IMG/VR virus record: IMGVR_UViG_3300020450_001133
Strand: one strand, 5' to 3'
DNA length: 64,000 nucleotides
Origin: a virus
Lineage: Duplodnaviria; Caudoviricetes
A model generated the notes under the pieces. That model was not told where the DNA came from and made no database searches. It saw only the letters and a program-made list of their open reading frames with translations. The first letter of the stretch is position 1, and each line of letters begins with the position of its first letter. Positions 904-16,127 of this stretch are shown one piece after another. The position numbers were made by a program, and so were the translations under genes.

Positions 904-1330
904 CTAGGTAATCCTTATCCTTGTATGTTTTTATCATATGGCATTTAACACACAATGTCTGTATATTATCCTTCGTATTAGCACCACCTTGGCTCTTTAG
1001 GTGTATATGGTCACCATGCATAATGGCTCGCATTACACGAACTCTATGATACTCATCATCTATTTCTTCAAACTGAGGATCTTCAGTTGGGTTATATCCA
1101 CACTTTGCACATTCCATAGTCCTATAAAATGTCCAAGGTCTTTCAGGTTTACCCATACCGCCGTACTCGACACATTCCAATTGATGTTCTCTACATAAAG
1201 TGTTGCTACCAGGACCGTCATATATACTGATTGTATTATCACAATCCTCTAGCAAACACTTTTTGTTGAGTTGCTCTTTTAAGACTGCGTTAGATTTTAA
1301 CTTGTCTTTGTTTGGGTCTCTTATTGCCAT
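887..1330 (-). CDS. HNH endonuclease with extra Cys pairs (Zn-binding)
   Basis: GDHIHLKSQGGANTKDNIQTLCVKCHMIKT = HNH motif; CAKC and CxxxxC pairs. Confidence 0.8.
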   Translation of the reverse strand: MAIRDPNKDKLKSNAVLKEQLNKKCLLEDCDNTISIYDGPGSNTLCREHQLECVEYGGMGKPERPWTFYRTMECAKCGYNPTEDPQFEEIDDEYHRVRVMRAIMHGDHIHLKSQGGANTKDNIQTLCVKCHMIKTYKDKDYLGAKQR

Positions 1331-2484
1331 AATTCAAAATCCAATACACTATACCCATTGTTAGGAGAGTATGTTGGAGTTTTTAAGTCTGTGCTTTTCT
1401 TAATTTGTGCAATAAGGAAAGGTCCGCCACAACGCCATTCTGTAGTAAACCCTCTAACTATAATTTCGCCATCCTCATTTTTATCATCGCTATGCTTGTT
1501 AGCACCTCGATACCAATTTGAATAACTTTGTTTTACCTTATCCCAAAACATTCCATTCTCACTAAAGTCTGCTTCAAAGTATTCTTTAGTGAAGTCTGCA
1601 AGTTTTCTGCAGTAATCATCATCTACTTTTATACCTTGGTTATAACAAGCATCAAAGTATTCATACAGTTGCCTTGCTTCTTTAGGTCTTACAGGTCTGT
1701 CCTGATTCAAGTAACTCCAGTAACTAGTAAACATCTTAGTAATGTTTGGATGTTTTCTCTTTCTTAAACTTTTACTCATTAAGGTGTCTGCTAACAATGT
1801 AAATGCACCATTCTCATCTTCATCGCCAAACTTATTGTTTGTAGCAAACAAACCTGCATTTTCAAAGTATTGTTGCTTTTGTTCTGAATCAATCCAATCC
1901 TCATCTGTTGCTCCATCGACTCTCACACCAAACACCATTTGCTTGAATGTGTCAATAAAGTCTAAAGGTTCCTTTGCATCTCCATTTAACAAAATAAAGT
2001 TACGTCTTATCTCTAACTTATTTTCTACTGGATATTCTACAACTGGAATCTCAACACTTGCAGGACGTTGTCCAAATACTTTTGTTGCAATAATGTATAA
2101 AGTAATAGCAGTATGTTGTCCGTCCCATGCTATCCATTCATCACCTGGAGGAACTTCTTTATACACCTGTATAGGCATAACCATACTCTGACTAAAGTAG
2201 CCAAGTATCTTTATAACATGCCTAATATTCAGAGGACGTTGTAATGTAGTATCAATTACAATGTCACTCATCTTTGCAGGAATAGAATTGCACAATGTAA
2301 TATCATCAAATGACTTCCATTGTTTATTTCTACGTTTGAATTCATCTACTGCACCATCCAGCATTTTTGCAAATACTGGATTTAGTTCTAGTGCATCATT
2401 TAGACGTTGTTGTAATGAAACAAGATTACTTGCTTCTTCTGTGAATTGCTGATTTATTTTATCAGCATAACTTGTAGTAGTCAT
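1321..2484 (-). CDS. ParB/Srx-fold protein with DGQH motif
   Basis: IDTTLQRPL...WIAWDGQHT resembles the DGQH(R) ParB-like signature. Confidence 0.6.
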   Translation of the reverse strand: MTTTSYADKINQQFTEEASNLVSLQQRLNDALELNPVFAKMLDGAVDEFKRRNKQWKSFDDITLCNSIPAKMSDIVIDTTLQRPLNIRHVIKILGYFSQSMVMPIQVYKEVPPGDEWIAWDGQHTAITLYIIATKVFGQRPASVEIPVVEYPVENKLEIRRNFILLNGDAKEPLDFIDTFKQMVFGVRVDGATDEDWIDSEQKQQYFENAGLFATNNKFGDEDENGAFTLLADTLMSKSLRKRKHPNITKMFTSYWSYLNQDRPVRPKEARQLYEYFDACYNQGIKVDDDYCRKLADFTKEYFEADFSENGMFWDKVKQSYSNWYRGANKHSDDKNEDGEIIVRGFTTEWRCGGPFLIAQIKKSTDLKTPTYSPNNGYSVLDFELWQ

Positions 2485-2765
2485 TTAGCAACAACTCCTA
2501 CCCATAAATTATCATTTTCATATCTACGGGTTCTAATCATTACATCACTGTCTTTGTAATGCCTTCTATTATAATTTGCCACAGCACTTAACATACGACA
2601 ACCGCCGCTTTTGTTACGTTTTATGCTTTCGTGGTTTGCTGGAATTACTAAAGCACTTCCTTCACTTAATAAATGTAACTTGTACCTAGAATTAGTACTG
2701 TTACGTCTTGGTGGCATTGCCGCCGTTACAATTTCAAAATTGTAATCTTCATTGTTTGTCTTCAT
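2481..2765 (-). CDS. Hypothetical protein (start reassigned to MKTNNEDY)
   Basis: GAGGAGG SD 7 nt before the ATG at 2765. Confidence 0.55.
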   Translation of the reverse strand: MKTNNEDYNFEIVTAAMPPRRNSTNSRYKLHLLSEGSALVIPANHESIKRNKSGGCRMLSAVANYNRRHYKDSDVMIRTRRYENDNLWVGVVAK

Positions 2766-2832
2766 ATTAAACCTCCTCGCCATTCTCGGCATTAGCGGGC
2801 CTCATCGCCCTAAGTCATATTAGACATTTTTA

Positions 2833-2860
2833 ATTATACTTCTTTATTCTAATTTGTCAA
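2833..2860 (-). promoter_or_regulatory. sigma70-type early promoter
   Basis: TTGACA-16-TATAAT. Confidence 0.75.
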
Positions 2861-3100
2861 GCCTTTTCTTTTGAAAAACATAACAACACCATATAAACTA
2901 ATAAGAAACCAAAATACTTCAATTACTATACTAGCAAGGTTTGGTGTATAAACTAAACTTACTGTAACAAGTATTGCAACCAATAAGTTGTTAAAACTGT
3001 ACCAAAACCCTTTAGGGTCTATCTTATCTAATTGCAGTAGTGCATACGTGATTATTAATAATGCAACTCCTGTTAATCCTATTAGGTCTGGTAATGTCAT
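2849..3100 (-). CDS. Small multi-TM membrane protein (CBU_0592-like)
   Basis: 83 aa hydrophobic; DLIGLTGV..YALLQ..YSFNNLL..EVFWFLIS pattern. Confidence 0.55.
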   Translation of the reverse strand: MTLPDLIGLTGVALLIITYALLQLDKIDPKGFWYSFNNLLVAILVTVSLVYTPNLASIVIEVFWFLISLYGVVMFFKRKGLTN

Positions 3101-3243
3101 TTTTTATCCTTTCTTTTTTCTCCAAATATCTTTTCCCATGCTTCTGCATACTTGTTCTGGTCAGTAGGTTTTTGTATGGAGCCTTTGCCTCCATGCCATT
3201 TACCTTTACTCGCTGTCTCGTTGTTCTTTTTCTCTTTGCTCAT
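3097..3243 (-). CDS. Small phage protein (WHGGKGS...AWEKIFG), 48 aa
   Basis: Manual translation MSKEKKNNETASKGKWHGGKGSIQKPTDQNKYAEAWEKIFGEKRKDKK; stop overlaps the next ATG (ATGA). Confidence 0.55.
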   Translation of the reverse strand: MSKEKKNNETASKGKWHGGKGSIQKPTDQNKYAEAWEKIFGEKRKDKK

Positions 3244-3358
3244 ATTCTAACCAATCCCACGGATATCCAGTTCTTGGCTCTTTGTTTTCCTTTGCTCTTT
3301 TCCAGGCTTGATCCTGTAAAGTATTAGGAGTCTTTTCTTTTTTCTTTTCTTCGCTCAT
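3206..3358 (-). CDS. Small hypothetical protein, 50 aa
   Basis: Manual translation MSEEKKKEKTPNTLQDQAWKRAKENKEPRTGYPWDWLEYE...; fills the gap in a gene-dense run. Confidence 0.4.
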   Translation of the reverse strand: MSEEKKKEKTPNTLQDQAWKRAKENKEPRTGYPWDWLEYEQREKEQRDSE

Positions 3359-3527
3359 TTGTTTTAAGTGTCTCTCCACAATGTGGGCATTTAAGTGGTA
3401 TGTCTAATAATTCGCTATATGCAGTATGTTTATTCCATTCCTCATCTATGTCCACAGTAGGTATAACCTCTGCGTGGAACATCTCAGGTGGTAAAGGAAA
3501 TCCTACATGTTTGTTTGAGTCTACCAT
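3324..3527 (-). CDS. Hypothetical protein with CPHC motif
   Basis: 67 aa ORF overlapping its neighbour. Confidence 0.5.
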   Translation of the reverse strand: MVDSNKHVGFPLPPEMFHAEVIPTVDIDEEWNKHTAYSELLDIPLKCPHCGETLKTNERRKEKRKDS

Positions 3528-3820
3528 TTTTCTAAATTTACACCTCGGGTATTAAATGTTCCTTTTGTTCTGCTTTCTCTATAATCAAATGGTACACTTA
3601 CACTAAAAGGATCTGATATTCCTGTGCCTACCCATTCAGCAGTATTGTAAATTGTACTAGGATTTACATGGTCCAAATACTTTTCTACAAACATATTATT
3701 CTTTTCACACCATGCTTCTATTTCTTCATAAGTTCCATACACCAATGTACCCATTTTGTATTCACTGTGGTCTGCATGTAGCACTCTTGCTATTTCTTGA
3801 TGTGATATACAGTTACTCAT
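3521..3820 (-). CDS. Hypothetical protein
   Basis: 99 aa; AGGA SD. Confidence 0.55.
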   Translation of the reverse strand: MSNCISHQEIARVLHADHSEYKMGTLVYGTYEEIEAWCEKNNMFVEKYLDHVNPSTIYNTAEWVGTGISDPFSVSVPFDYRESRTKGTFNTRGVNLEKW

Positions 3821-3956
3821 CCTATCTTTGGTGTTTCAGGATTTGGCTGATAATCAAAATAATCCAAACTATCTACGGTACTTTGCCACCTGGTTATAAT
3901 AATAAACAACACTGAAACTATCAGCATTGTAATAATTAGGTCTGGTATTGGGTTTC

Positions 3957-4178
3957 TCATACTATATCTCCATGTACATCTATCTCATCATATTGCTCTA
4001 ATCTTTTAGGAATTACAACTACATAATTACAAGTCTCACAACATCTTCCGTCCATTATGGGCCAAGCATTATGACTTTCAATTCCCTTTATGGGTTTAGA
4101 ACAAAGACAGCAACTTATAGTATCACCTTTCAGTCTACCTATAACATGTTTTGCGTCTTGTTCTGTAAAATCAGACAT
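3957..4178 (-). CDS. Small Zn-finger-like protein
   Basis: CCLCSK...GRCCETCN Cys pairs. Confidence 0.55.
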   Translation of the reverse strand: MSDFTEQDAKHVIGRLKGDTISCCLCSKPIKGIESHNAWPIMDGRCCETCNYVVVIPKRLEQYDEIDVHGDIV

Positions 4179-4363
4179 TATTCAACCTCTTGCCAATAAC
4201 CTTGATTCAATAAATTATCAATGTATAATTGACCACCTTCATATGTCATAAGATGATTTTCGCCATCTTCATTGACTTTCCAAAATTCTAAACCTTCTTC
4301 ACGGGTACTTTCAAATGTAATAACATTTTTACCGTTTGTTAAAACTTTTACAAATTCAATCAT
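4178..4363 (-). CDS. Hypothetical protein
   Basis: 61 aa, coupled to both neighbours. Confidence 0.5.
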   Translation of the reverse strand: MIEFVKVLTNGKNVITFESTREEGLEFWKVNEDGENHLMTYEGGQLYIDNLLNQGYWQEVE

Positions 4364-4806
4364 TTGCCTATATCTTTAATGTTGTTTTTGCCAATAACCT
4401 GATATGCACCTTTGTTGTAAGCAGGAGCAATAGTATAGTTCTTGCATATTTCTGCTTTTTCTTTCTCCCACTCAAGGTCATCTTTCTTAGTGCTACTGCC
4501 ACCAGTCAAAGGCATACTAGGATATTTTTTAGCATGTTCTTTCATTTGCCTAGCACGTTCTAGTGCCGCATGGTCAGGTTTTGCTGGCTTGAATGCTTCT
4601 CTACTTCGAGGATCTATTTTAGGTGTTATGCCATGACAGTAATCAACATACTGTTCAAAAGTCCACTTAGGCAGACCCATACGTTTATGTTCTTTGTTCT
4701 TAACTCTTAAGCCTTCTTCCCACTTGGCAATGTTTGCCTTAGTCATCTTAGGCTTATACTTTCTATTTCTAATGGTCGTTAGACCTTGTGCTAAATGCAT
4801 TGTCAT
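4360..4806 (-). CDS. Conserved T4-like marine phage protein (IAPAYNKGAYQV C-terminus)
   Basis: C-terminal motif recalled from marine myophage proteins; directly downstream of a sigma70 promoter. Confidence 0.6.
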   Translation of the reverse strand: MTMHLAQGLTTIRNRKYKPKMTKANIAKWEEGLRVKNKEHKRMGLPKWTFEQYVDYCHGITPKIDPRSREAFKPAKPDHAALERARQMKEHAKKYPSMPLTGGSSTKKDDLEWEKEKAEICKNYTIAPAYNKGAYQVIGKNNIKDIGK

Positions 4807-4813
4807 AATTTAT

Positions 4814-4842
4814 ATTTTACCGGATTTATTGATTAATGTCAA
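4814..4842 (-). promoter_or_regulatory. sigma70-type early promoter (leaderless transcript predicted)
   Basis: TTGACA-17-TAAAAT; ATG 7 nt after the -10. Confidence 0.7.
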
Positions 4843-4853
4843 GAAAAAATCTA

Positions 4854-4883
4854 TAAAAAAATGCCCGACCGAAGCCGGGCATT
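4854..4883 (-). terminator. Rho-independent terminator
   Basis: AATGCCCGGC-TTCG-GTCGGGCATT followed by a U-tract. Confidence 0.85.
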
Positions 4884-4897
4884 GAGTTGGTTTGTTC

Positions 4898-5137
4898 TTA
4901 TCGGATGTCTGATTGAATTTGTTTACCATTTGCTTTTTCAAATGCATCTGCTAAAACATCAAACATCGCATAATGTTTTTGGTTGTTTGCAGGATTGCCA
5001 TCTGTGTCACGAGGACCAACATCCATGTAAACATCAGCATCAACAAAGTTCCAGTTGACGTGTCCATTAGACTGAATGTTTTCAGGATTAGTTACAGCCT
5101 TGTTAAAAGACCTTGCCATTTTTACATCTACGTTCAT
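4898..5137 (-). CDS. Hypothetical phage protein
   Basis: 79 aa; ends just before the terminator. Confidence 0.55.
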   Translation of the reverse strand: MNVDVKMARSFNKAVTNPENIQSNGHVNWNFVDADVYMDVGPRDTDGNPANNQKHYAMFDVLADAFEKANGKQIQSDIR

Positions 5138-5744: not shown

Positions 5745-6131
5745 TTAGAAGAAATATCTGAAGAATTGCCCTAAAAGTGCTGAACCAAGGGCAAATACAA
5801 TGATTGCATTAAGGATAATTAGGGCTCTATCCTTCCACATTAGTCCAACCCATGTCCAACCCAAACAACCTATCAAACTGAGGATTCTGTCTGCTGTCTG
5901 AAATGTTTCTCCGTCTTGGGCTCTCATCATTACAGCCAATAAAATGAACATACTGGCTGTCCACTTTACATACCAACTTAGGTCACCTTTGGGTGTAGCA
6001 CTTTTTACAATACGTTTAGAATGTTGTATTTCACCTATGCTATACTCTTCCCCTTTATCTGTTACAATTACAGTATCAGGAGATGGTGTTGGGTCTGCTT
6101 CTTTTATAGTAAATTCTTTTTTAATACTCAT
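5745..6131 (-). CDS. Membrane protein (DUF6552-like)
   Basis: WYVKWTAS...LMWKDRALIILN with hydrophobic helices. Confidence 0.5.
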   Translation of the reverse strand: MSIKKEFTIKEADPTPSPDTVIVTDKGEEYSIGEIQHSKRIVKSATPKGDLSWYVKWTASMFILLAVMMRAQDGETFQTADRILSLIGCLGWTWVGLMWKDRALIILNAIIVFALGSALLGQFFRYFF

Positions 6132-6598
6132 AACAGTCCTAATTGATATTTTCCTTCATCGCTTACCATGGTATGTGGATTCCACGGTGGGTCAAATGTT
6201 AAAACTACATTAACCTTATTTACACACTCAACTGCTCTAGTGGCAAATTCTATTTCCATTGGTATGATTTCTGCCGCAGGACAATTTGGTGTAGTTAATG
6301 TAAATATGATTTGTGCATCGTACTCTTTATTTACTGCAACTTCATAAATTAAACCTAAATCATACACGTTTAAGTTCAATTCAGGATCGTACACTTTACG
6401 CAAATTTGCTATTATTTGTTCTACCAATTGATCCTGTAAATTTTCTGGGGGCTTAGGCATACTTGCTTTTTCTTCTGCCGTTGGAAGTGTTCTTGATTCA
6501 TAATCTCTACCTTGCAAGGTAGAATTTTCTTGGTCTAACTCTTCAAGTCTTGGATCAGGTTCTTTACCTACAGTTTCATCTTTTCTATCGCCTGCCAT
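6128..6598 (-). CDS. sufT: SUF system Fe-S assembly protein SufT (DUF59/MIP18 family)
   Basis: LRKVYDPEL..NVYDLGLIY...TLTTPNCPAAE...LTFDPPW. Confidence 0.85.
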   Translation of the reverse strand: MAGDRKDETVGKEPDPRLEELDQENSTLQGRDYESRTLPTAEEKASMPKPPENLQDQLVEQIIANLRKVYDPELNLNVYDLGLIYEVAVNKEYDAQIIFTLTTPNCPAAEIIPMEIEFATRAVECVNKVNVVLTFDPPWNPHTMVSDEGKYQLGLL

Positions 6599-7782
6599 AG
6601 TCCCTCAACTAATTTTACGCAATCATGTTCATCATTATATGGTGCTGAACTAACTCGTAAAATTCCTTCATTATTTGTGTATCTGTAACTTGCCGGATAG
6701 GCACACATATGACCCGTCCTTACACAAACATTTTGCATGTCTAAAAATCCTGCTAAATCACTTGGACTTGTTCCTTTTACTTTAAAACTATAAACACTAT
6801 TTGGTTTAATAGGTCCAATAAGTTCCATTTGTTCTATTTCAAATAGACCTTTGTCTTTTAACATATTAAAAAATTCTTTTTCACATTCATGAATTTCATT
6901 GTATGTGATATCTTGTATCCATTTTGCCGCCGCACCTAAACTATGAACTCCTGCTACATTAGGAGTTCCGGCTTCCATTCTTTCAGGTCCTCTTTTCAAA
7001 GTGAATGTATCAAAATCGCATTGTGTGATTGTTCCGCCACCTAACCAAGTTTGTACATCATCAAATCCGCCTTTATGATATAAAACTCCTGTGCCTGTAC
7101 TTGCATACATTTTATGTCCACTAAATGCCATCCAATCTATATCATTCTTTTTAACATCAATTGGTCTATGTCCTATACTTTGACAAGCATCTATTACAAC
7201 TTCACAGTCATGTTCTTTTGCAATCATTATCATTTGTTGCCAAGGAAGTTCTTGTCCTGTAAAATTACTTTGTGTTAAGAAACTGCAAACACTTCCTGGA
7301 TTGTCTTTTACTGTTTCATACCAAGCATTTACGTCTACATTACCTTCATCGTTACTAGGAACTATTACTAACTGCCCATTTGCTTTTGTTCTACCTTGTT
7401 GCATCCAAGGTAAAATGTTACTGTGATGTTCTACCTCAGTCATAATTACTGTTGGTTCTAACGGAGTCCAATCTGCAATTATGTTTAAACTTGCAGTTGT
7501 TCCATTTGTAAAAACAATCTCATGTGGTTCAGCATTTATAAGTTTTGCAACTTCTACTCTTGCTTCGTCATACTTGTCACTTGCAATGGTACTAGTCTTA
7601 AAGTCTCCCCTATGAACATTTGCTCTGTAATTATAATGATAATCACTAACCGCTTTGATTGAACTATCAACAGTTTGACTACTTGCGGCATTGTCCAAGT
7701 ATGTCAAATCGCTATATGCTAAACTAGGAAAACAATTCCTAATCTGTTTGATATCTTTTGCTTTTTTATAAACTTTTAACAT
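6568..7782 (-). CDS. sufS: Cysteine desulfurase SufS (group II)
   Basis: YLDNAASSQ, EHHSNILPW, FSGHKMY (PLP Lys), EAGTPN, RTGHMCA (catalytic Cys). Confidence 0.92.
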   Translation of the reverse strand: MLKVYKKAKDIKQIRNCFPSLAYSDLTYLDNAASSQTVDSSIKAVSDYHYNYRANVHRGDFKTSTIASDKYDEARVEVAKLINAEPHEIVFTNGTTASLNIIADWTPLEPTVIMTEVEHHSNILPWMQQGRTKANGQLVIVPSNDEGNVDVNAWYETVKDNPGSVCSFLTQSNFTGQELPWQQMIMIAKEHDCEVVIDACQSIGHRPIDVKKNDIDWMAFSGHKMYASTGTGVLYHKGGFDDVQTWLGGGTITQCDFDTFTLKRGPERMEAGTPNVAGVHSLGAAAKWIQDITYNEIHECEKEFFNMLKDKGLFEIEQMELIGPIKPNSVYSFKVKGTSPSDLAGFLDMQNVCVRTGHMCAYPASYRYTNNEGILRVSSAPYNDEHDCVKLVEGLWQAIEKMKL

Positions 7783-9086
7783 AAAAAACTACTTACTAAT
7801 ACGTCCTCGGCTATGTCTTTTGCTAGTCCTCGGCTCTGCAAATAATATAATTTGCTTTTATCTATATTACTTATGGTACAACCATGAGTACATTCAATTT
7901 CTTTGGTATGTATATCTAGTATGGGTCTGGAGTGCATTTTTGTATTTGGAGTCAACATTAAATTTTCGTTTTTCATATGACCATCAAATCCTACACTATT
8001 AGGACTTACATCAAATCTGCCTATAAAACTTGTACTAGCATTTTCATTTCCAACGTTCTTAATATCAATTATACTTTTGTTATCTGAACTTCTACTGTCA
8101 ACATGCACAAACTGATGATATTCATGTCCTTTGTAGATGTTGTTTCTACCATTAAGTGTTAAATCTACATTTGTGGTTAAGTCAAAATAAAAGTTTTCTT
8201 GATAGTAGTCTGATCCTGTGTTTTTAAAATTTACAGTTATCTTACTGTTAGGGTGGCAAATAAATTTGCTATCAAATACACCGAAGCCTCCATAATCGTT
8301 TGTAATTCTATCTATAACCAGTTCACTGTTTTCTCTAACAATGTAGATTATATTGTTCATTTGTCCAGATTGTAATTTTACATTCTCTTTTAAATGAACT
8401 TTTGTTTTGTGTTGTACATCTATAATGTTTGTATTGCATTCTAAAATACCTTTAGAATTCTTATTTAGATATTGAATACTAATTGGATTCTTCATAAAGT
8501 TTCCATTAGCACCAGATGGAACAATCACAGTATTTAAAAAAGGTGAGAATGCGTATGTAAAATTAGAAAAGTTTTCTGTCCTTCTTATTAGTTTTACATA
8601 TTCATCTTGCTTGTTCCTGTTTACTTTTATTTGGTCTAAAATTTGTAATTGGAAAGGTTTCTTAACTCCTAAGTCGTTGCTAGGATAAAGTATTCCGTCA
8701 TTAAACAATAATGTATTCTTTTTAAATGCTACTTGTTCAAATGGTTCTAGGTCTGCAAGATAATTTTTTTCATTGGGCTCACTTGACCAAAGTATTTCTT
8801 TATTGTAAAGTTTGTGTAAGTTTGCAAAGTTGAATTGTTCAGATTTACTATCAGGCAAGCCTATTTTACTAATGTATTCTACATTATTGTTATAGCCGTT
8901 ATAAAAATTATTTAATTTATGTTTAAGATGATGAAAGTCTCTTGTTTTTGTATTCTCACCTATAACATAATCATAAAGGTCTTTGATAGTGTAATAACTA
9001 TCAAACTCATTTGTAGGTTCTAATGTTTCTCTGTAGAATAAATTTTTATACACTTTCAAACCCTTGACTAAATATTTTGTTTGCAA
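7776..9086 (-). CDS. sufD: Fe-S assembly protein SufD (divergent N-terminus)
   Basis: C-terminal NENLML..SRPILDI..ECTHGCTISNID..LYYLQSRGL; lies between sufC and sufS. Confidence 0.8.
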   Translation of the reverse strand: MQTKYLVKGLKVYKNLFYRETLEPTNEFDSYYTIKDLYDYVIGENTKTRDFHHLKHKLNNFYNGYNNNVEYISKIGLPDSKSEQFNFANLHKLYNKEILWSSEPNEKNYLADLEPFEQVAFKKNTLLFNDGILYPSNDLGVKKPFQLQILDQIKVNRNKQDEYVKLIRRTENFSNFTYAFSPFLNTVIVPSGANGNFMKNPISIQYLNKNSKGILECNTNIIDVQHKTKVHLKENVKLQSGQMNNIIYIVRENSELVIDRITNDYGGFGVFDSKFICHPNSKITVNFKNTGSDYYQENFYFDLTTNVDLTLNGRNNIYKGHEYHQFVHVDSRSSDNKSIIDIKNVGNENASTSFIGRFDVSPNSVGFDGHMKNENLMLTPNTKMHSRPILDIHTKEIECTHGCTISNIDKSKLYYLQSRGLAKDIAEDVLVSSFLC

Positions 9087-9741
9087 GTTCTATATCGCCT
9101 GATAGAACTCCATCCTTCTTCAATACTAATACTTTGTCTGGGTTTAACCCTTCAACTAATTTTTGATAATGTGTAACAACAATCAAAGTGTTATTATCAT
9201 TACGCCATTCATTGAGTTGTTCTATTAATGCTTTTATTCCATCTACATCTAATCCACTGTCTGGTTCATCAAGCATTGCCAATTTGGTATTAAGCATACT
9301 CATTTGTATGAGTTCATTTTTCTTTTTCTCACCACCACTGGCGTCTGTGTTAAGGTTTCGTTTATCCCAATTATCAGGCAAGTTAAGTTTTGCACTTACT
9401 TCTTTAAAATTTCTTAATGTTTCTGCTATATCTTTTCCTGATATATTTAATGCCTGTTTCATAAACTGAAAGTTACTTAAACCAGGTACACTTGTTGGTG
9501 CTTGGAAACCTACAAACATTCCTAGTCTTGCTCTTTCATCTGTTTCTAACTCTGTAAGGTCACTACCCATAAAAGTCATTTCGCCAGATACATTAAGGTC
9601 AGGTCTTCCCATGATGCCATGTAATAGGGTGCTTTTACCTACACCATTACTTCCCATCACCACATAAGTTTTGCCAATGTCGAAAGTCGTACTGACATTG
9701 TCAAGTATATGTTCTACAGAAAAATCTTTTAATTTTAACAT
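9046..9741 (-). CDS. sufC: Fe-S assembly ABC ATPase SufC
   Basis: GSNGVGKST Walker A, FQAP Q-loop, SGGEKK signature, LDEPDSGLD Walker B, VVTHY. Confidence 0.92.
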   Translation of the reverse strand: MLKLKDFSVEHILDNVSTTFDIGKTYVVMGSNGVGKSTLLHGIMGRPDLNVSGEMTFMGSDLTELETDERARLGMFVGFQAPTSVPGLSNFQFMKQALNISGKDIAETLRNFKEVSAKLNLPDNWDKRNLNTDASGGEKKKNELIQMSMLNTKLAMLDEPDSGLDVDGIKALIEQLNEWRNDNNTLIVVTHYQKLVEGLNPDKVLVLKKDGVLSGDIELANKIFSQGFESV

Positions 9742-9747
9742 GCCGAT

Positions 9748-9776
9748 ATTATACTACCTTTTAGGTATTAAGTCAA
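9748..9776 (-). promoter_or_regulatory. sigma70-type promoter internal to the suf cluster
   Basis: TTGACT-17-TATAAT; sufC ATG 6 nt after the -10, no SD. Confidence 0.8.
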
Positions 9777-9778
9777 TA

Positions 9779-11236
9779 TTATCCAACTGCCCCTTCCAGT
9801 TGTACAGCCAACAATTGATTGGCTTCTGCGGCAAACTCTAATGGTAGTTTTTGGAATACGTCTTTACAAAATCCATTCACTACCAAATTCATTGCATCAT
9901 CTTCACTGAATCCTCTAGTTGCAAGATAATACATTTGTTCTTCACTAATTTTTCCAGCACTTGCTTCATGCTCTATCATAGCACTATCATTTTGGCTAGT
10001 TACATAAGGAATTGTTAATGCTCTACTATCTTGTAACATTAAACTATCACACTTTGTATAGTTAGACGCATTTTTGGCTCCTGGATTAACTTTTACTGAA
10101 CCTCTATATGTATTTGTGCTGTCTCCAAAACTTATACCTTTGGATATAATGGTACTTTTGGTATTCTTACCTAAGTGTATCATTTTTGTTCCTGTGTCTG
10201 CTTGTTGTTTGCCTTTTGTTACTGCAACACTAAAGAACTCTCCAATACTACCTTCACCTTTTAAAATGCAACTTGGATATTTCCAAGTTACTGCTGAACC
10301 TGTTTCTACTTGGGTCCAACTAACTTTACTATTTTTGCCTTCGCACTTTGCACGTTTTGTTACAAAGTTATAAACACCACCTACTCCATCTTCATTACCT
10401 GGATACCAATTTTGTACTGTGGAGTATTTTATTTCTGCATTGTCTTTAGTAATTAATTCTACACAGGCGGCATGTAATGTATTCTCATCATATGCTGGTG
10501 CAGTACAACCTTCTAAGTAACTTACATAACTATCTTCGTCTGCTATTATTAATGTGCGTTCAAACTGACCTGTGTTTCTTGCATTTATTCTAAAGTATGT
10601 GTTTAGTTCCATAGGACATGAAACACCTTTAGGGATATACACAAAAGTACCGTCTGTGAATACAGCAGAGTTCAGTGTAGCAAAGTAATTGTCTGTGTAA
10701 GGTATCACACTACCTAAGTATTCTTTAACTAGTTCTTCGTGGTCTTTTACTGCTTCACTAATACTGCAAAATACAATGCCATGCTTCTTTAATTCTGCTT
10801 GGAATGTTGTAGCAACACTAACACTATCAAAGACAGCATCAACGGCTACTGTTGGTATAAGATTTTCTTTTTTTGGTTTTTCTGTATCAAGTCCTAGTAA
10901 GGCATCACGTTCATGCAAAGGAACACCTAACTTTTCAAATGTATCTAAAATCTCTTGTGGTATTTCGTCTTTGTTTCTAGTCTTAGGTGCTGAGTAATAA
11001 CTTAATGCTTGGTAGTCAACAGGGTCATAATCAAGTTCACTCCAATTGGGCTCACTCATCTGCTCCCATCTTTTGAATGCTTTTAGTCTAAATTCAAGTA
11101 ACCATTCTGGCTCATCTTTGAGCATACTGATATTTTTAATAATATCTTCATTCAAACCCGTGGGGAATGTTTCGTTTTCTAAATCAGTTACGAATCCTTC
11201 TTTGTAATATTTGTCGTTAAAATTATCAATACTCAT
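9779..11236 (-). CDS. sufB: Fe-S assembly scaffold SufB
   Basis: [58 protein letters not shown]. Confidence 0.96.
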
Positions 11237-11538
11237 TATTCCACTTGTTTAACTTTTAATTGTAAAGGATGTCCTTGTCCTCTAGCAACGGTTGTTCCTT
11301 CTGCACATTTCTGTTCTGCAATTTCATAAGAATATGTACCAGCAACTGCTGAACCTGACTCATGAACTTCGAGTGTTACGTCTTTTGCTGACTTAAGATT
11401 CTTGTTAAAGATTTCAACTAACAGTTTGATTACAAATTCTACTGGAGTAAAATCGTCATTAAAAATTATAACATCATACCTTGGTGGGTATTTTAATGCT
11501 ACATTAGTTCTTGTCTTTTGTTCAACTTGTTCTGTCAT
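11236..11538 (-). CDS. clpS: N-degron adaptor ClpS
   Basis: [19 protein letters not shown]...[24 protein letters not shown]. Confidence 0.92.
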
Positions 11539-11539
11539 A

Positions 11540-11743
11540 TTATTTACTATGTGGTGGTAATTTTGCCTCTACAAACATTTCATGTTTTCGTTTAACCGGA
11601 TTATACTTTCTTAATTTTAACTTCTGATTTTCAATTGTCAACCTTTTTGTTTTCAAAGCGGTGTAATGATATGTGTGACTATCTCTGGTTTCACCTTCCG
11701 GTATTAAATAAACTAAGGTTTTTCTTTTGTCTTTCTTTGCCAT
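11540..11743 (-). CDS. rpmG: Ribosomal protein bL33 (Cys-free type)
   Basis: KLKLRKYNPVKRKHEMFVEAK C-terminal L33 signature. Confidence 0.8.
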   Translation of the reverse strand: MAKKDKRKTLVYLIPEGETRDSHTYHYTALKTKRLTIENQKLKLRKYNPVKRKHEMFVEAKLPPHSK

Positions 11744-11752
11744 AATAATAAA

Positions 11753-11776
11753 GGGTAGCAGAAAATACTGCTACCC
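11753..11776 (-). terminator. Hairpin between hsp20 and rpmG (terminator or processing site)
   Basis: Perfect 9-bp stem GGGTAGCAG/CTGCTACCC followed by TTTATT. Confidence 0.6.
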
Positions 11777-11794
11777 ACATATTTACCGCAAAGT

Positions 11795-12235
11795 TTATGA
11801 TATTTTTATCTTTTGTGGTTTCATAGCATCAGGTACGTTCCTGAACAATGAAACTCTTAAAATACCATCTTCTAGTTTTGCTGATTTTACTTCTACAAAC
11901 TCTGCTAGTTTGAATGTTCTAGTAAAGTTTCTTTCAGCAATACCTTTATGAAGATACTCAATTTCATCTGAATCTAATACAGCAGATGTACCTGATATTT
12001 TTAAAGTACCATCTTCTATTTCAATTTCGATGTCATCTTTCTTAAAACCTGCAACGGCTAAAGTTATTTCATATATGTCATCTTTGCCTTTGCTGATATT
12101 AAAGGGTGGATACCCTGTTGCGTTATTTGTGAAAGTAGGGTCGTTAAAGAATTGCTCTGCAAGTCTATCAAAGCCTACGGACATTTTATATAGTGGGGAT
12201 AGTGATTCGGTTGTGAATCGGATTTGCTTATTCAT
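11795..12235 (-). CDS. Small heat-shock protein Hsp20 (IbpA-like)
   Basis: GFDRL, YPPFNI, LAVAGF, YLHKGIAERNFTRTFKLA, LEDGIL. Confidence 0.93.
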   Translation of the reverse strand: MNKQIRFTTESLSPLYKMSVGFDRLAEQFFNDPTFTNNATGYPPFNISKGKDDIYEITLAVAGFKKDDIEIEIEDGTLKISGTSAVLDSDEIEYLHKGIAERNFTRTFKLAEFVEVKSAKLEDGILRVSLFRNVPDAMKPQKIKIS

Positions 12236-12241
12236 ATTAAT

Positions 12242-12303
12242 CTCCTATATTTAGCAAGTTAATCTATTCCAACTTTTAAAACCCTAATGGCGAATTAAAA
12301 GTT
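12242..12303 (-). promoter_or_regulatory. ROSE-type RNA thermometer leader of hsp20
   Basis: CUUGCU-AAAUAU-AGGAG hairpin (UUGCU with bulged G opposite the SD) at 12242-12258; upstream 9-bp hairpin around TTCGCCATTAGGG. Confidence 0.7.
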
Positions 12304-12304
12304 C

Positions 12305-12594
12305 GCGTGTGAGGTCGTTTCTGTTAGTATGTGTCTGTATCTCCTCACGACACTTGTCCATCTTCTTGGTTTCTTTTGATGTTACCATCTCCAGTCCTTT
12401 GTTGGTGGACCCAATCATGTATATACTTCTTAGTCTGTTACCATTCGGTTTATTTCACTTACGATCCTTAAACCTTGTGTATCTTCCCAGTTGTTTATAC
12501 AAGGCATTTCTGGTTGTCCTAGTTGTACAGTAGACATTAGTCTCTTACGATTCCAATGCCCTTGCACTTCTTTGTCCTTCCTTAAAATGCAAAG
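12305..12594 (-). ncRNA. Candidate ~290-nt structured RNA
   Basis: Several stems and GUAA loops seen by eye downstream of the promoters at 12596-12643; no convincing SD-led ORF. Confidence 0.35.
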
Positions 12595-12613
12595 ATATTT
12601 ATAATCTATATGT

Positions 12614-12643
12614 ATTATATAGTACTTTTTTGGCAAAAATCAA
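12614..12643 (-). promoter_or_regulatory. sigma70-type promoter; a TATAAATA late-type element lies just downstream at 12596-12603
   Basis: TTGATT-18-TATAAT. Confidence 0.65.
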
Positions 12644-12720
12644 CCTTTTTTGACATCTTTTTTATATTTTTTCATTAAAAACTATTATTATTGGGCCTTT
12701 TGCTAGGTATAAGTAATTGT

Positions 12721-12957
12721 ATGCAACAAGACAAATTTGCAAAAATAATTCTAATATCCGACTTATTAAAGGATAAAGAAGCAAAAGAAGAAGAACTTGC
12801 ATATTACGAAAAAGTAATGCAAGAACTCCTGGTTAAAATGCATATGGTTAAAAATGAAATAAACTTAACCAACACAATTATAGATGTTATAAAAAACGAA
12901 AAAGCGGACATACTACAACAGTTTATAGAATCTAAAGACAACACTAGAGTAATATAA
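12721..12957 (+). CDS. Hypothetical coiled-coil protein
   Basis: MQQDKFAK...; start reassigned (AGGT upstream). Confidence 0.55.
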   Translation: MQQDKFAKIILISDLLKDKEAKEEELAYYEKVMQELLVKMHMVKNEINLTNTIIDVIKNEKADILQQFIESKDNTRVI

Positions 12958-13018
12958 ATCCATATATCGAAAAACATCTTGTATTCACCCTCCCTGTGAA
13001 TACTTGGGGAGAAAACAA

Positions 13019-13270
13019 ATGAATACGAGAAAGCGACATAGAATCATCTCGACATTAAAAGCCTGTACATGGCGTGTACTTGCGTCTGCTGACACCTTTC
13101 TAATTGGTTTCTTATTAACAGGTAGTGCGGCTATTGGTGCCAGTATTGCTAGTATAGAAGTATTAACTAAAATGTTCTTATACTATTGGCATGAAAGAAT
13201 GTGGGAAAAGCCAAAGATTAATATGTTTGTTATGCAGTCTTATAAAAGAATAGGGTCCTATATAAAATAA
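13019..13270 (+). CDS. DUF2061-family membrane protein
   Basis: LKACTWRVLASADT...EVLTKMFLYYWHERMW; GGGGAG SD. Confidence 0.75.
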   Translation: MNTRKRHRIISTLKACTWRVLASADTFLIGFLLTGSAAIGASIASIEVLTKMFLYYWHERMWEKPKINMFVMQSYKRIGSYIK

Positions 13271-13314
13271 AACCCTATCCAAAGTTATTAATAACGTAAA
13301 GGACTTCTAATTAC

Positions 13315-13959
13315 TTAGAATGATTTGCTAACTGAAAATACGAAAGTATCTTCGTCTGCAAGTCCTGAGCCGTCTTCAGCGGCAAAGTCTACATAAGCAA
13401 CTGTTCCTTCAATACCCATAGGTAAATCAAAACTTCTACTTACTGACCAATTATCGCCTACAGTATCCCAAGAACCATAAGACACATCAACTGCGTCCAT
13501 TACGTTATATGAGACTTCTGTATAGTCGTTGAAGTCATCGTTTCCGATGAAATGTGAGACAGACAAGTCTTTCCATGTTCCTGAAATATAAACTTCAGAA
13601 CCATCTAAAGCACCATCACCACTATATGCATAATCGATGTAACCAACGTCAAGACTAATGTCATTGCCTATTGATCCAGCCCAACCTACATATAGGTCAG
13701 TTTCTCTGTCTGCATCACTGCCAACATAAGAAACTTCTGATGCCCAAACTCCAGCATAAATGCCTTTACCTGCGTCTACATGTAGACCCATTGATAAAGC
13801 ACTATCGCCTTCTGTTTGAGATTGTCCTCTGAAAATGTAGTCACTTCCGTAACCAACACTTCCACTCACTGAAGCCGCTTGGGCTCCGAATGCCATAATA
13901 GACAATAGTATAATTACTAAAGCCTTATATCCATTCTCAATACTGATTAAATTTTTCAT
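13315..13959 (-). CDS. TorF-family putative outer-membrane porin
   Basis: Signal peptide, SDYIFRGQSQT, GIYAGVWAS, ETDLYVG, C-terminal Phe. Confidence 0.8.
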   Translation of the reverse strand: MKNLISIENGYKALVIILLSIMAFGAQAASVSGSVGYGSDYIFRGQSQTEGDSALSMGLHVDAGKGIYAGVWASEVSYVGSDADRETDLYVGWAGSIGNDISLDVGYIDYAYSGDGALDGSEVYISGTWKDLSVSHFIGNDDFNDYTEVSYNVMDAVDVSYGSWDTVGDNWSVSRSFDLPMGIEGTVAYVDFAAEDGSGLADEDTFVFSVSKSF

Positions 13960-14036
13960 TTAATCCTCCTTCTTATTATTATATTACTATGCTACAACAG
14001 ACAATAATACTGCCTGTTTTGTCACAGTAATCTATT

Positions 14037-14065
14037 ATTATACACAAAGTAGGAATATATGTCAA
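14037..14065 (-). promoter_or_regulatory. sigma70-type promoter of the porin gene
   Basis: TTGACA-17-TATAAT. Confidence 0.8.
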
Positions 14066-14069
14066 CCTT

Positions 14070-14111
14070 TTATCCAATAAATATCAACAAGTTATCCACA
14101 GGATATTAACA
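14070..14111 (+). repeat. Four 9-mers at 11-bp phasing, including one perfect DnaA box
   Basis: TTATCCAAT, ATATCAACA, TTATCCACA, ATATTAACA starting at 14070, 14081, 14092, 14103. Confidence 0.5.
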
Positions 14112-14402
14112 ATATTCTAGTTTATATGGAAATTAAAAAAGTGTGTTTTTTGATTGGAGACTTATACTTATCTAATAAATGTGTTTGGATTTTGTTTGGA
14201 TAATGAGAATACCTTTAGAAAAAAGTGTTACTCATTTACAACACTCTCTTCTATTAGATTGGCTGAGTTGCTTCTACGTCTACTTGAATGTACTATTTCA
14301 ACGTCTAATCCAACAAAACCACAATAAACGCCGAACACAATATTAATGATTATCTGTTTGTGTTCTTTCTTCCATATGTGTTTTCAATCAATCATAAAAA
14401 AA

Positions 14403-14420
14403 GCACACCCGAAGGTGTGC
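14403..14420 (-). terminator. Rho-independent terminator
   Basis: GCACACC-TTCG-GGTGTGC + U-tract; identical to the hairpin at 25634. Confidence 0.88.
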
Positions 14421-14451
14421 TTTTACTTAACCGTATTAGGTTATTTGCTAC

Positions 14452-14715
14452 TTAAGAAGTGGCAAGTGATTTGTACCCTGCGGCAATAACGGCTCTAGAA
14501 GCAGTACCTAGTCTGTAAACATTTCTAGTTCTACCTTTAGTGTCAGTTACCGTGTTAAGGTAAATTGGATAACCTTTGAAACGTAGTGATTGAATCACTG
14601 CTTGTGGGTTACCAGCACCAAAATGTGCTTTGATTTGAGCTGAACTTAAAGTTCTGCCTTCTTGTAGAGCTGAAAGTACTTTCATCTCTTTACTTACGAA
14701 TGTTGTTGTAGTCAT
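14452..14715 (-). CDS. Small winged-HTH-like phage DNA-binding protein
   Basis: KVLSALQEGRTLSSAQI..FGAGNPQAVIQSLRFKGYPIY; AGGAGG SD before the ATG at 14715. Confidence 0.7.
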   Translation of the reverse strand: MTTTTFVSKEMKVLSALQEGRTLSSAQIKAHFGAGNPQAVIQSLRFKGYPIYLNTVTDTKGRTRNVYRLGTASRAVIAAGYKSLATS

Positions 14716-14810
14716 ATGACCTCCTAATTTCAACAAACCAACTAATCTAAATATAAAATTTTTCATAGTCTTTTTAATTATGTTAAGGACAATTCCTTAA
14801 CTTACTCACT

Positions 14811-14838
14811 ATTATACGTCTTTTGTTTTCAATGTCAA
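14811..14838 (-). promoter_or_regulatory. sigma70-type early promoter; an 8-bp hairpin (14782-14801) follows near +1
   Basis: TTGACA-16-TATAAT; GTTAAGGA-ATTG-TCCTTAAC. Confidence 0.8.
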
Positions 14839-15260
14839 CCTTTTTTTGACATTAAATATGTTTCGTTATGAATCCACTTGTTTTTCTTGATAAATCCCCA
14901 TTCTCTAACACGTGGACCTACAAAAAATAATGTCCAAACGTCAACACCAGGCTCTAATTCTATACGGTGTAATGACTTACTACCAGCAAATCTCATACTT
15001 CCTGCTTTACGCCAAAACTTTCCTTTGGGTGTGTATTCCCAATATCCACCTTTAAGTATGATTGTGAAGTAACTCCAAGGATGGTCATGTAGGTCATCTG
15101 GGTCACCTTTATGAAAATTATGTAGGAAAAAATTAAAAGGGAACCATTTTCTATCTTTTAGGAATACATAATACCTAGTTAGATATGGTTCTTGGTGTAT
15201 TCGGTCCAGTATTATTCGTTTTCTACCAAACCTTTCTAGTAGATTAAGAAGAATTTTCAT
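14835..15260 (-). CDS. Cupin-fold phage protein
   Basis: LHNFHKGDPDDLHDHPW...GGYWE...LHRIEL; start reassigned to MKILLN. Confidence 0.7.
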   Translation of the reverse strand: MKILLNLLERFGRKRIILDRIHQEPYLTRYYVFLKDRKWFPFNFFLHNFHKGDPDDLHDHPWSYFTIILKGGYWEYTPKGKFWRKAGSMRFAGSKSLHRIELEPGVDVWTLFFVGPRVREWGFIKKNKWIHNETYLMSKKG

Positions 15261-15690
15261 GTTCTGCAACTCTCTGTCTGAGACTGGTACTGCTAAAACT
15301 ATGGTCTCTGCCATTGAATACTAATTTAATATTCCTGTCTTTGCAGATTTGCTTACCAGTGAATTGTTTATCTTTGTATTCAACTCCTAACACTCTAACA
15401 TTTATAGGAAGTGTTAAAAGTAAATCCTCTAAATCTTGCTCTGTTGCGTAACATACTATTTCATCTACATATTTTACAGCCGCCAACTGTATTTGTCTTT
15501 CTACTAAACTTTGTACTGGCGGATTTTTACTGTCTGGTCTGTCTATTGTAGGATCAGTTTGCAATCCTACTATCAAAAAATCACAATGTCTTTTTGCTTC
15601 TTCAAGCATTGTGATATGACCTGCATGTAACAAATCGAATGTACTACAAGTAAATCCTATTTTGCCACAATCTTTATAACTGAGTCTCAT
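15244..15690 (-). CDS. Cytidylyltransferase (TagD-like, HIGH superfamily)
   Basis: STFDLLHAGH, LIVGLQTD, KYVDEIV, FSSTSLR. Confidence 0.88.
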   Translation of the reverse strand: MRLSYKDCGKIGFTCSTFDLLHAGHITMLEEAKRHCDFLIVGLQTDPTIDRPDSKNPPVQSLVERQIQLAAVKYVDEIVCYATEQDLEDLLLTLPINVRVLGVEYKDKQFTGKQICKDRNIKLVFNGRDHSFSSTSLRQRVAEHENSS

Positions 15691-16127
15691 GCAAAGTCCT
15701 TTAACATTTTTTTGATTTCTAATGCGTGTTGTTCTTCTTGTCCAATTTGTCCTCTAGCATATTCTTCTAAATACACACTGGCACCTTCTACTTCAGAAAG
15801 TAGTTCTTTATATAAATTAACTGCATGAGTTTCATGTTCTAAACTTTCTTGTAATATTTGAACAATGCTATGGTCATGTGATTCCACAATTGGTGCTATA
15901 ACTTGACTAGGATGTCCGTCTAAGCCTGTAATTAATTCTCCGGCTTGTAAGGCATGTTGTAAACTTTCATTTGCTTGTTCTTGCAAAAATGTTACAATAG
16001 GAATCCTGTAAGGTCCAGTAATCATTAACGAACTATGTGCGTATCTGACAACTCCAGCCATTTCATATTCCACTATTGAATTAAGTATCTCACATACTTT
16101 ACTTTGGTTTAATTCTTTCAATTCCAT
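15687..16127 (-). CDS. Bacterioferritin/ferritin-like protein
   Basis: E..Y, ESLQH, LEHE, EEQH diiron-type ExxH motifs in a four-helix pattern. Confidence 0.75.
   Translation of the reverse strand: MELKELNQSKVCEILNSIVEYEMAGVVRYAHSSLMITGPYRIPIVTFLQEQANESLQHALQAGELITGLDGHPSQVIAPIVESHDHSIVQILQESLEHETHAVNLYKELLSEVEGASVYLEEYARGQIGQEEQHALEIKKMLKDFA

Follow-up and report, generated by a model that had tools for sequence, protein, structure and literature searches.

A putative SUF iron-sulfur cluster assembly operon in an uncultivated marine T4-like jumbo myophage

The suf genes at the locus

IMG/VR virus record IMGVR_UViG_3300020450_001133 (Duplodnaviria; Caudoviricetes) was analyzed over a stretch of 64,000 nucleotides, which is referred to below as the window. 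On its minus strand, from position 6128 to 11236, lie five co-oriented and tightly packed open reading frames (ORFs) that were identified from the ORF list and from Pfam and NCBIfam profiles as sufB, sufC, sufD, sufS, and sufT, genes of the SUF system for iron-sulfur (Fe-S) cluster assembly. A preliminary description of this DNA had reported five co-oriented suf genes at 6128 to 11236, and the ORFs were found exactly there.

The first gene, sufB (9779 to 11236), encodes the scaffold subunit of 485 amino acids (aa), which scored 813 bits against NF008773, an NCBIfam equivalog built on Escherichia coli SufB (cut-off, 717), and 636 bits against E. coli SufB itself (5awf_A). It is followed by sufC (9046 to 9741), which encodes the ABC-type ATPase of the SufBC2D complex (231 aa); its product was also above the family cut-off (TIGR01978, 232 versus 212.8) and matched E. 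coli SufC with 153 bits. The diverged SufB partner is encoded by sufD (7776 to 9086), with 436 aa counted from the TTG at 9086. This start is uncertain, with a GTG at 9053 as the alternative, and the 5' end of the gene overlaps the end of sufC. SufD was well above the Pfam cut-off for SUFBD_core (4e-33, 115 bits versus 27) and below the curated SufD thresholds (TIGR01981, 113 versus 222; NF008194, 82 versus 489). The product of sufS (6568 to 7782; 404 aa) is a type II cysteine desulfurase dependent on pyridoxal phosphate (PLP), for which Aminotran_5 was matched at 1e-92 and the best family was TIGR01979, at 328 bits against a cut-off of 475; its best matches among solved structures were SufS/CsdB proteins, at about 213 to 218 bits. 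The last gene, sufT (6128 to 6598; 156 aa), encodes a DUF59 Fe-S maturation factor (PF01883, 3e-15; TIGR02945, 109, below the cut-off of 143) that matched TM0487 and other DUF59 structures. For SufD, SufS, and SufT the correct family was thus the best match, yet the scores were under the NCBIfam thresholds.

Several junctions overlap or nearly do so, as at clpS/sufB (TAATG), sufD/sufS (ATGTTAA), and sufT/DUF6552 (ATGA). The disordered N-terminal linker of SufT carries a strain-specific insertion of 38 codons (about 115 nucleotides [nt], 6452 to 6566) that neither the 110-kb sister contig G001 nor a related strain's contig in a metatranscriptome contains.

Functional residues and the fold of SufD

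Alignment to solved structures showed that SufB keeps the EGC (equivalent to Cys254), CDS (Cys405), and EHEAS (Glu432/His433/Glu434) motifs, and alignment to E. coli SufB that it keeps the equivalents of Arg226, Asn228, Gln285, Trp287, and Lys303 too. All of these acceptor, tunnel, and ligand residues of SufB were invariant across 36 sequences. SufC keeps the Walker A lysine, the Q-loop, the signature SGGEKK, the Walker B motif LDE, and the H-loop histidine, while SufS retains the PLP lysine (FSGHKMY), the catalytic cysteine (RTGHMCAYP), and EHHSN. SufT has DPE, CP (the cysteine of TTPxCP), and PPW. The CTHG motif of SufD, corresponding to Cys399 and His401 (E. coli Cys358 and His360), was likewise invariant across 36 SufD sequences. 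Alignments to E. coli and other structures therefore agree with the preliminary description, in which the functional residues of all five proteins were said to be intact.

SufD is the most diverged subunit, sharing 15% identity with E. coli SufD and 21 to 39% with bacterial SufD proteins, and its strong divergence had been recognized at the outset. An AlphaFold2 model built from a 36-row alignment reached a mean predicted local distance difference test score of 84.8 and a predicted template modeling (TM) score of 0.87. The best PDB match of this model was E. coli SufD (5awf_B) over its full length (TM scores of 0.70/0.74), ahead of SufB chains. When the phage SufB and SufD were predicted as a complex, the score was 0.82, a mark attained by 58 of 80 solved complexes and by 2 of 110 mismatched pairs; the best control scored 0.08. 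The confidently predicted interface (SufB 383 to 429 and SufD 362 to 407) takes in the cluster ligands of both chains, namely the Cys and Glu-His-Glu of SufB and the Cys-x-His of SufD. The prediction shows a modeled likeness to SufBCD; as a like complex, E. coli SufBCD, has already been solved, it is not independent proof of binding.

The operon belongs to a phage genome

A SufB-based scan of IMG/VR yielded 56 loci. Throughout its 64 kb the window is colinear with G001, at 85 to 91% nucleotide identity, and at the protein level with positions 129.8 to 192 kb of G002, a 339.8-kb contig estimated by CheckV to be 91% complete. G002 encodes the T4-type major capsid protein gp23 (271 bits) and the portal protein gp20 (378 bits). 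Among the sufB-bearing contigs, both proteins were found in G002 and in a second contig, G004, and gp23 was found in G006 and G007. As Terminase_6C gave matches under threshold only, phage identity rests on gp23 and gp20. Through the 64-kb colinearity with G001 and G002, and with the capsid genes read in relatives, the window was assigned to a T4-like jumbo myophage. The genome is that of an uncultivated marine phage whose relatives are about 330 to 345 kb in length.

The order hsp20, bL33-like gene, clpS, sufB, sufC, sufD, sufS, sufT, DUF6552 was found in about 22 IMG/VR viral loci, and an exact-protein look-up recovered the identical cassette in Tara scaffolds of 146 to 220 kb from separate samples. 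The DNA of the window was present nearly whole in marine metagenome runs from several studies. Within 8 kb of sufB, hsp20, L33, clpS, clpX, and DUF6552 occurred in 13 to 26 viral loci and in none of 80 bacterial loci, a set made up of the top-scoring 80 out of more than 600 SufB loci. The GC content of the operon (0.335) is close to that of the window (0.343), and composition is uniform. The cassette from hsp20 to sufT lies on opposite sides of a 5-kb gene block in G002 (135917 to 139154) and in the window (511 to 5137), and hence it has moved as a unit. Colinearity, the gp23 and gp20 genes, independent recurrence, and uniform composition together make a chimera or a bacterial fragment very unlikely.

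These results answer two points of the preliminary description. It had taken the contig to be phage rather than bacterial or chimeric, a view upheld by the colinearity with gp23- and gp20-bearing contigs and by the cassette's presence in many independent assemblies, and it had proposed that IMG/VR be searched for suf-bearing phage contigs, which gave the approximately 22 cassette loci above. Its statement that the suf genes are flanked by phage ORFs was loose: the phage identity stands, from colinearity with capsid-bearing contigs, but the immediate flanks are clpS, the L33-like gene, hsp20, and the gene for the DUF6552 membrane protein.

Phylogeny and selection

Among GTDB species representatives, the closest bacterial SufB proteins were 60 to 65% identical to the phage protein. 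In a maximum-likelihood tree of SufB, 38 of 41 viral sequences were separated from all 80 bacterial sequences by a branch that had 99% support in the Shimodaira-Hasegawa-like approximate likelihood ratio test. The remaining three IMG/VR sufB contigs grouped among the bacterial sequences. All 14 viral SufD proteins were likewise set apart, by a branch that had 100% support, and the subclade of the window was also marked in the SufC and SufS trees. Identity to bacterial proteins was 35 to 43% for SufC, 21 to 39% for SufD, and 29 to 36% for SufS.

When SufS was compared with 5.8 billion protein clusters, approximately 38 of them matched at 57 to 97% identity, located on long, phage-sized contigs (of 329 to 345 kb in several assemblies), followed by matches at no more than 44%. 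Outside the viral group, no protein in this collection was closer than approximately 44%, and named bacterial proteins were 35 to 40% identical. The ratio of nonsynonymous to synonymous substitution rates (dN/dS) within the phage clade was 0.04 to 0.05 for sufB, 0.06 to 0.10 for sufC, 0.08 to 0.11 for sufD, 0.04 to 0.10 for sufS, and 0.03 to 0.04 for sufT, all measured at unsaturated dS (0.3 to 1.2). The operon is thus old, vertically inherited, and kept functional under purifying selection. No bacterial donor or sister group could be named from this SufB tree, as it is unrooted and its bacterial sample consists of the best 80 of more than 600 loci. The phylogeny against hosts that the preliminary description had recommended, in which viral SufB and SufD form clades of their own, fits its view that the operon is not a fresh capture from a host, as do the SufB identities of 60 to 65% and the gap in the SufS matches.

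A sufE gene in related contigs

The 64-kb window contains no sufE, sufU, or A-type carrier gene, as had been pointed out in the preliminary description, which went on to suggest that sulfur transfer may use host proteins or a novel route and that sufE should be sought in the rest of the genome. The search was made in relatives of the phage, and the SufE family PF02657 was found above the Pfam cut-off in five of five related contigs. In G001, sufE (117 aa) is 27.5 kb from sufB and maps 16.7 kb to the left of the first base of the window. The encoded protein keeps the acceptor cysteine in GC(T)S, aligned to Cys51 of E. coli SufE, and the gene is directly followed by a canonical clpP (NF001368, 302 bits; sufE and clpP together at G001 positions 86447 to 87448, or 1471 to 2472 of locus L143). 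With a sufE encoding the catalytic cysteine in the sister contig, and sufE in all five relatives, neither a host protein nor a novel sulfur route is probably needed, and the suggestion of one is unlikely to hold. Sulfur transfer most likely proceeds through an ordinary SufS-SufE relay, judging from these genes, and the reading of the operon as part of an autonomous Fe-S factory is strengthened.

None of the five relatives encodes IscU, NifU, or SufU. An A-type carrier was absent from this lineage and was found only in the separate lineage of G004. Host carriers may therefore still deliver the clusters.

Other genes of the conserved cassette

Upstream of sufB, and like it on the minus strand, is clpS (11236 to 11538), which encodes a Clp adaptor of 100 aa (PF02617, 3e-27). 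The overlap of its stop with the start of sufB (TAATG) couples the two genes translationally, and clpS adjoins or sits near sufB in 26 of the 56 viral loci, compared with 0 of the 80 bacterial loci. The next gene upstream encodes a bL33-like protein of 67 aa (11540 to 11743, minus strand) that is just above the threshold of TIGR01023 (29.7 versus 23.95). In 13 viral loci it is kept at 73 to 93% identity, and its place there is invariably between hsp20 and clpS. The coupling of sufB to clpS and rpmG that had been described earlier is thus seen in the clpS/sufB overlap, with the L33-like gene upstream. The first gene of the cassette is hsp20 (IbpA/B-like; 11795 to 12235, minus strand; PF00011, 1e-17).

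At the other end, the start of a DUF6552 gene (5745 to 6131, minus strand; PF20189, 3e-15) overlaps the stop of sufT. Its small product has a soluble N terminus followed by three hydrophobic segments, which were taken by eye as transmembrane. DUF6552 follows sufT in related loci and in the Tara scaffolds, and it stands beside sufB in some contigs without other suf genes nearby; in the ESM Atlas nearly all members of the family are viral. The gene may belong to the operon as a sixth member, and its product may be an accessory factor of the viral SUF system. In Tara relatives (L170 to L172, 13465 to 14073), a peroxiredoxin gene (AhpC-TSA) is found two genes downstream of DUF6552 and ties the cassette to oxidative-stress functions.

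Approximately 6 kb from the cassette lies clpX (17322 to 18590, minus strand), whose 422-aa product has zf-C4_ClpX, AAA_2, and ClpB_D2-small domains; the gene is near the cassette in 13 viral loci. With the clpP found beside sufE, clpS and clpX make up what is, by gene content, the phage's own Clp set. The constant company of hsp20, clpS, and clpX, together with the clpP adjacent to sufE, suggests a combined module for proteostasis and cofactor supply.

Promoter architecture and transcripts

The 37-nt gap between sufB and sufC contains a sigma-70-type promoter sequence, TTGACT-N17-TATAAT (9748 to 9776, minus strand), which matches the consensus at 11 of 12 positions and ends 6 nt before the ATG of sufC; there is no Shine-Dalgarno sequence. 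Across 12 related loci the two hexamers are kept, and so is their distance of 6 nt from the ATG, whereas the spacer and the bases within those 6 nt differ from locus to locus. The element remains tied to sufC even where 170 to 500 nt of extra sequence separate it from sufB. This extra sequence carries open frames running from the sufB stop (L004, L005 [11456 to 11958], L007, and L010 [11450 to 11748]). In a distant subclade, sufB and sufC overlap instead (TAATG). The pattern of conservation indicates a functional sigma-70-type promoter from which transcription is predicted to start on, or directly beside, the A of the sufC start codon and to give a leaderless sufCDST mRNA. An own promoter for sufCDST had been proposed in the preliminary description, and it is now seen to be kept across the 12 loci. 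In T4-like phages, promoters of this type are read by the unmodified host polymerase, and the present one would accordingly be early.

The stretch between hsp20 and the L33-like gene (11753 to 11795) carries an invariant GGTAAATA followed by a hairpin (11753 to 11776), with compensatory changes in the stem across eight loci. It could act as a terminator, as a leader structure, or as an element resembling a late promoter.

Two metatranscriptome libraries, from the same samples as the metagenomes that best covered the window, contained exactly matching contigs over parts of sufB, sufC, sufS, sufT, clpS, and L33 at depths of 3 to 18. A contig over hsp20 (11683 to 12471) had a depth of 480 to 608, compared with 3 to 18 for its neighbors, and the same ends in both runs; it begins approximately 236 nt upstream of the hsp20 ATG and extends past the hairpin into L33. 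The hsp20 gene is clearly transcribed and abundant in RNA, while the suf signal is compatible with low expression, with carry-over of DNA as a possible source.

Comparison with known Fe-S systems

The closest functional counterpart is the SufABCDSE system of E. coli. Phage SufB, SufC, SufD, and SufS, together with SufE in the relatives, carry the acceptor, tunnel, ligand, ATPase, and desulfurase residues of that system; SufB scores above the equivalog cut-off, the modeled SufD resembles the structure of E. coli SufD, and the predicted interface is at the E. coli position. The phage system differs in its carrier, in lacking sufA, and in having an unlinked sufE about 17 to 27 kb away beside clpP. 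It also has sufT, as in many non-enteric bacteria, a SufD with a shorter C terminus, a sufB coupled to clpS, and a sufCDST block with its own leaderless-type promoter. The gene order B-C-D-S-(gap)-T is identical to that in Pelagibacteraceae (SAR11) and at many bacterial loci, and the TAATG overlap of sufB and sufC in the distant phage subclade is as in Pelagibacter. However, phage SufB is only 62 to 64% identical to the alphaproteobacterial/SAR11-type protein, bacterial SufB proteins lie across a strongly supported branch, and none of the 80 bacterial loci has hsp20, L33, clpS, or DUF6552 beside the operon. By membership, the operon is predicted to belong to a phage-borne system of the E. coli SufBC2D/SufSE type that includes SufT and lacks SufA. 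It differs from bacterial systems in its carrier, its neighborhood, its split sufE, its promoter architecture, and its strongly diverged SufC, SufD, and SufS.

Single Fe-S genes are known as auxiliary genes of marine phages, namely those for an A-type carrier (sufA), iscU, sufE, and a paaD-like DUF59 protein (PMC5332604; PMC8940887). The T4-like marine phages concerned also carry radical S-adenosylmethionine (SAM) genes, glutaredoxin, and ClpP (PMC5332604; PMC8940887), and sufE was found without sufS (PMC8940887). In those cases one or two carrier or scaffold genes need the machine of the host, whereas the operon described here encodes the whole core, with desulfurase and ATP-driven scaffold. 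In the literature, including papers on marine jumbo phages, huge phages, and pelagimyophages, no paper was found that describes sufBCDS, and with it the full SUF system, from a phage whose viral nature is undisputed; coverage was incomplete, and this is an absence of evidence.

A tblastn search of 50,697 phage genomes found, apart from prophage-flank artifacts, a full suf cluster only in PhiMa05 (MW495066), recorded as a "Microcystis jumbo phage" and annotated with sufB-C-D-S-iscU; its SufB is 59% identical to that of the window. With blastn against the same genomes, only short matches to Staphylococcus prophage borders and to one gut contig were obtained. The viral nature of PhiMa05 is disputed, as it is rejected by virus predictors, has no packaging or tail module, and has an Fe-S system that was called a cellular trait (PMC13623518). 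Its suf genes neighbor panB, panC, and pxpA and are of the SufU/IscU type, in contrast to the present lineage with gp23 and gp20 on its contigs and a virus-specific neighborhood. PhiMa05 was rejected as a precedent on account of its disputed viral nature and bacterial-looking context.

Other viral lineages showed different arrangements. The second jumbo lineage, that of G004 (gp23 and gp20 present; SufB 65% identical; L018, L020, and L021 at about 9944 to 15460; L141, L144, and L145), carries sufB-sufC-sufS-sufE-sufT-sufA, with no sufD, two A-type carriers, and 17 radical SAM matches. Short SufD-like ORFs of approximately 190 aa, corresponding to the C-terminal part only, follow sufB/sufC in other viral clades (L023 to L025, L030, L042, L043, L050, L019, and L054). 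In G008, sufB and sufC are about 0.8 kb apart. Many viral contigs (L026 to L040 and others) have sufB without sufC or sufS within 10 kb, their SufB proteins all belonging to a single viral clade, and the gp23-bearing fragments G006 and G007 (90 and 134 kb) have no sufC or sufS anywhere.

Proposed function and alternative explanations

The suf genes are viral auxiliary metabolic genes, being host-type metabolic genes in a virus genome that neither the virion nor the replication machinery requires and that are maintained by selection. The steps of their proposed action are modeled on the established E. coli SUF pathway. SufS would take sulfur from L-cysteine as a persulfide by means of PLP and its active-site cysteine, and the cysteine of phage SufE would take over the persulfide and hand it to the Cys254 equivalent of SufB. 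Sulfur would then travel through the SufB tunnel to the SufB(Cys405)/SufD(His360) interface of SufBC2D, where the cluster would be built with power from the SufC ATPase, and SufT would help maturation under high demand. From gene content and promoters, the operon would be read early in infection by the sigma-70 RNA polymerase of the host. The clusters would go chiefly to Fe-S enzymes of the phage, possibly to host enzymes also, and the supply would persist in iron-poor, oxidizing surface seawater and after host synthesis has been shut down.

Two candidate clients are encoded on the minus strand of the window. One is a 7Fe-type ferredoxin (23314 to 23667; Fer4 and DUF3470, with CxxCxxCxxxCP), and the other is a radical SAM enzyme (46100 to 47149; PF04055, 32.7 versus 29.5) with the motif CNFSCDYC and matches to PHROG radical SAM families, which may use a 4Fe-4S cluster. 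Among relatives, 11 radical SAM matches were found in G002 and 17 in G004. Further host-type genes of the window encode a QueD/PTPS-like enzyme (20931 to 21404), a cytidylyltransferase-cupin fusion (16127 to 16897), and a dihydroorotate dehydrogenase (44420 to 45589). The QueD/PTPS-like enzyme hints at 7-deazaguanine chemistry, which would need the radical SAM enzyme QueE.

The explanation favored here, to which we assign a probability of roughly 0.8, is that this is a genuine, intact, phage-borne SUF system with sufE. That the block might be bacterial DNA, joined by chimeric assembly or residing on a misfiled cellular fragment, hardly deserves credence. Fe-S assembly systems are normally cellular, one being listed as a cellular trait in the critique of PhiMa05 (PMC13623518), whose suf region neighbors panB, panC, and iscU, and three IMG/VR sufB contigs do fall among bacteria in the tree; yet identical junctions bound the cassette at either end in about 22 IMG/VR contigs as well as in Tara assemblies made independently from different samples, nothing close in sequence was found among bacterial genomes or protein clusters, and the neighborhood is absent from the 80 bacterial loci. 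Both versions of this idea were rejected on junction recurrence, the 64-kb colinearity with gp23/gp20 contigs, and a composition like that of the rest of the window. Just as implausible is a passenger captured once and now reduced to nonfunctional remnants. The scores of SufD, SufS, SufT, and SufE below curated cut-offs and the shortened C terminus of SufD could be read as decay, but there are no stops or frameshifts, the catalytic residues are invariant, dN/dS is 0.03 to 0.11 at dS of 0.3 to 1.2, and gene order and the regulatory element are kept across lineages down to 72% SufB identity. The pseudogene reading was rejected on the intact frames, the invariant residues, and dN/dS. A repurposed machine is a little easier to entertain, if still improbable: it would traffic sulfur for thiolation of tRNA or DNA or for tailoring a metabolite made by the phage, or it would act as an iron or sulfur sink that manipulates host regulators. 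Type II desulfurases also supply other sulfur pathways, and SufS, SufD, and SufE are divergent. Against such a role stand the full canonical set in the bacterial order B-C-D-S-(gap)-T, the retention in SufB and SufD of all cluster-ligand and tunnel residues, which are needed only for cluster assembly, and the presence of SufT, an Fe-S maturation factor.

The alternative to be taken most seriously, although it too is unlikely, grants the same machine and changes its beneficiary: as a classical auxiliary metabolic gene set, it would keep host Fe-S enzymes of respiration, the tricarboxylic acid cycle, and nucleotide and isoprenoid synthesis running during a long infection under iron limitation or oxidative stress. 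SUF is the stress and iron-limitation system of bacteria, a peroxiredoxin gene lies two genes downstream of the cassette in the Tara relatives, hsp20, clpS, and clpX accompany it, and phage fragments with sufB and no nearby sufC or sufS would be sensible only with host partners. The individual Fe-S genes of marine phages have been interpreted along these lines (PMC5332604; PMC8940887). On the other side, these phages encode unusually many clients of their own, with 11 to 17 radical SAM matches per relative besides ferredoxin, and with SufC, SufD, and SufS only 21 to 43% identical to bacterial proteins, a self-contained, co-evolved complex fits better than a plug-in for the host machine. Supply chiefly to the phage's own Fe-S enzymes, as the gene content suggests, is about an even proposition, and it is compatible with benefit to the host enzymes.

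Several observations weigh against the favored explanation or its extension to phage clients. The system is known from sequence, and its biochemical and genetic activity is predicted; sufE is known from the contigs of five relatives, and, with no A-type carrier or IscU/SufU in the lineage, delivery to clients may need host carriers. SufD, SufS, SufT, and SufE are all divergent enough to score under the NCBIfam equivalog cut-offs. SufD stops approximately 30 residues before E. coli SufD, with a shortened C-terminal helical domain, and the predictor may have learned the SufB-SufD pairing from the solved E. coli SufBCD structure. The suf RNA is weak (depths of 3 to 18) and patchy; the two best runs gave no contig for sufD, and the signal may be DNA carry-over. 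The link to radical SAM clients is one of co-occurrence.

Implications

The broadest form of the proposal is that the lineage is self-sufficient in Fe-S biogenesis, with SufS-SufE, SufBC2D, SufT, and an early leaderless promoter of its own, welded to a Clp/Hsp20 set and co-evolved with a dozen or more radical SAM enzymes; this we hold tentatively, at slightly less than even odds. If true, a virus would for the first time have been shown to own an entire multi-subunit pathway for cofactor assembly, and phage Fe-S chemistry would be independent of the host SUF and ISC systems, or possible after their shut-off. Fe-S assembly is treated as a hallmark of cells and serves as a nonviral argument in the dispute over PhiMa05, so that the present case is a warning that such pathways are unsafe as a contamination filter in viromics. 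The compact, diverged SufBC2D and SufSE proteins offer material for biochemical study. Carried by a phage lineage that is widespread in ocean metagenomes, the operon would help to explain how jumbo phages can bear the cost of at least a dozen radical SAM enzymes where seawater is poor in iron. The known metabolic autonomy of viruses, limited so far to single carrier genes, would then extend to an entire cofactor factory driven by ATP.

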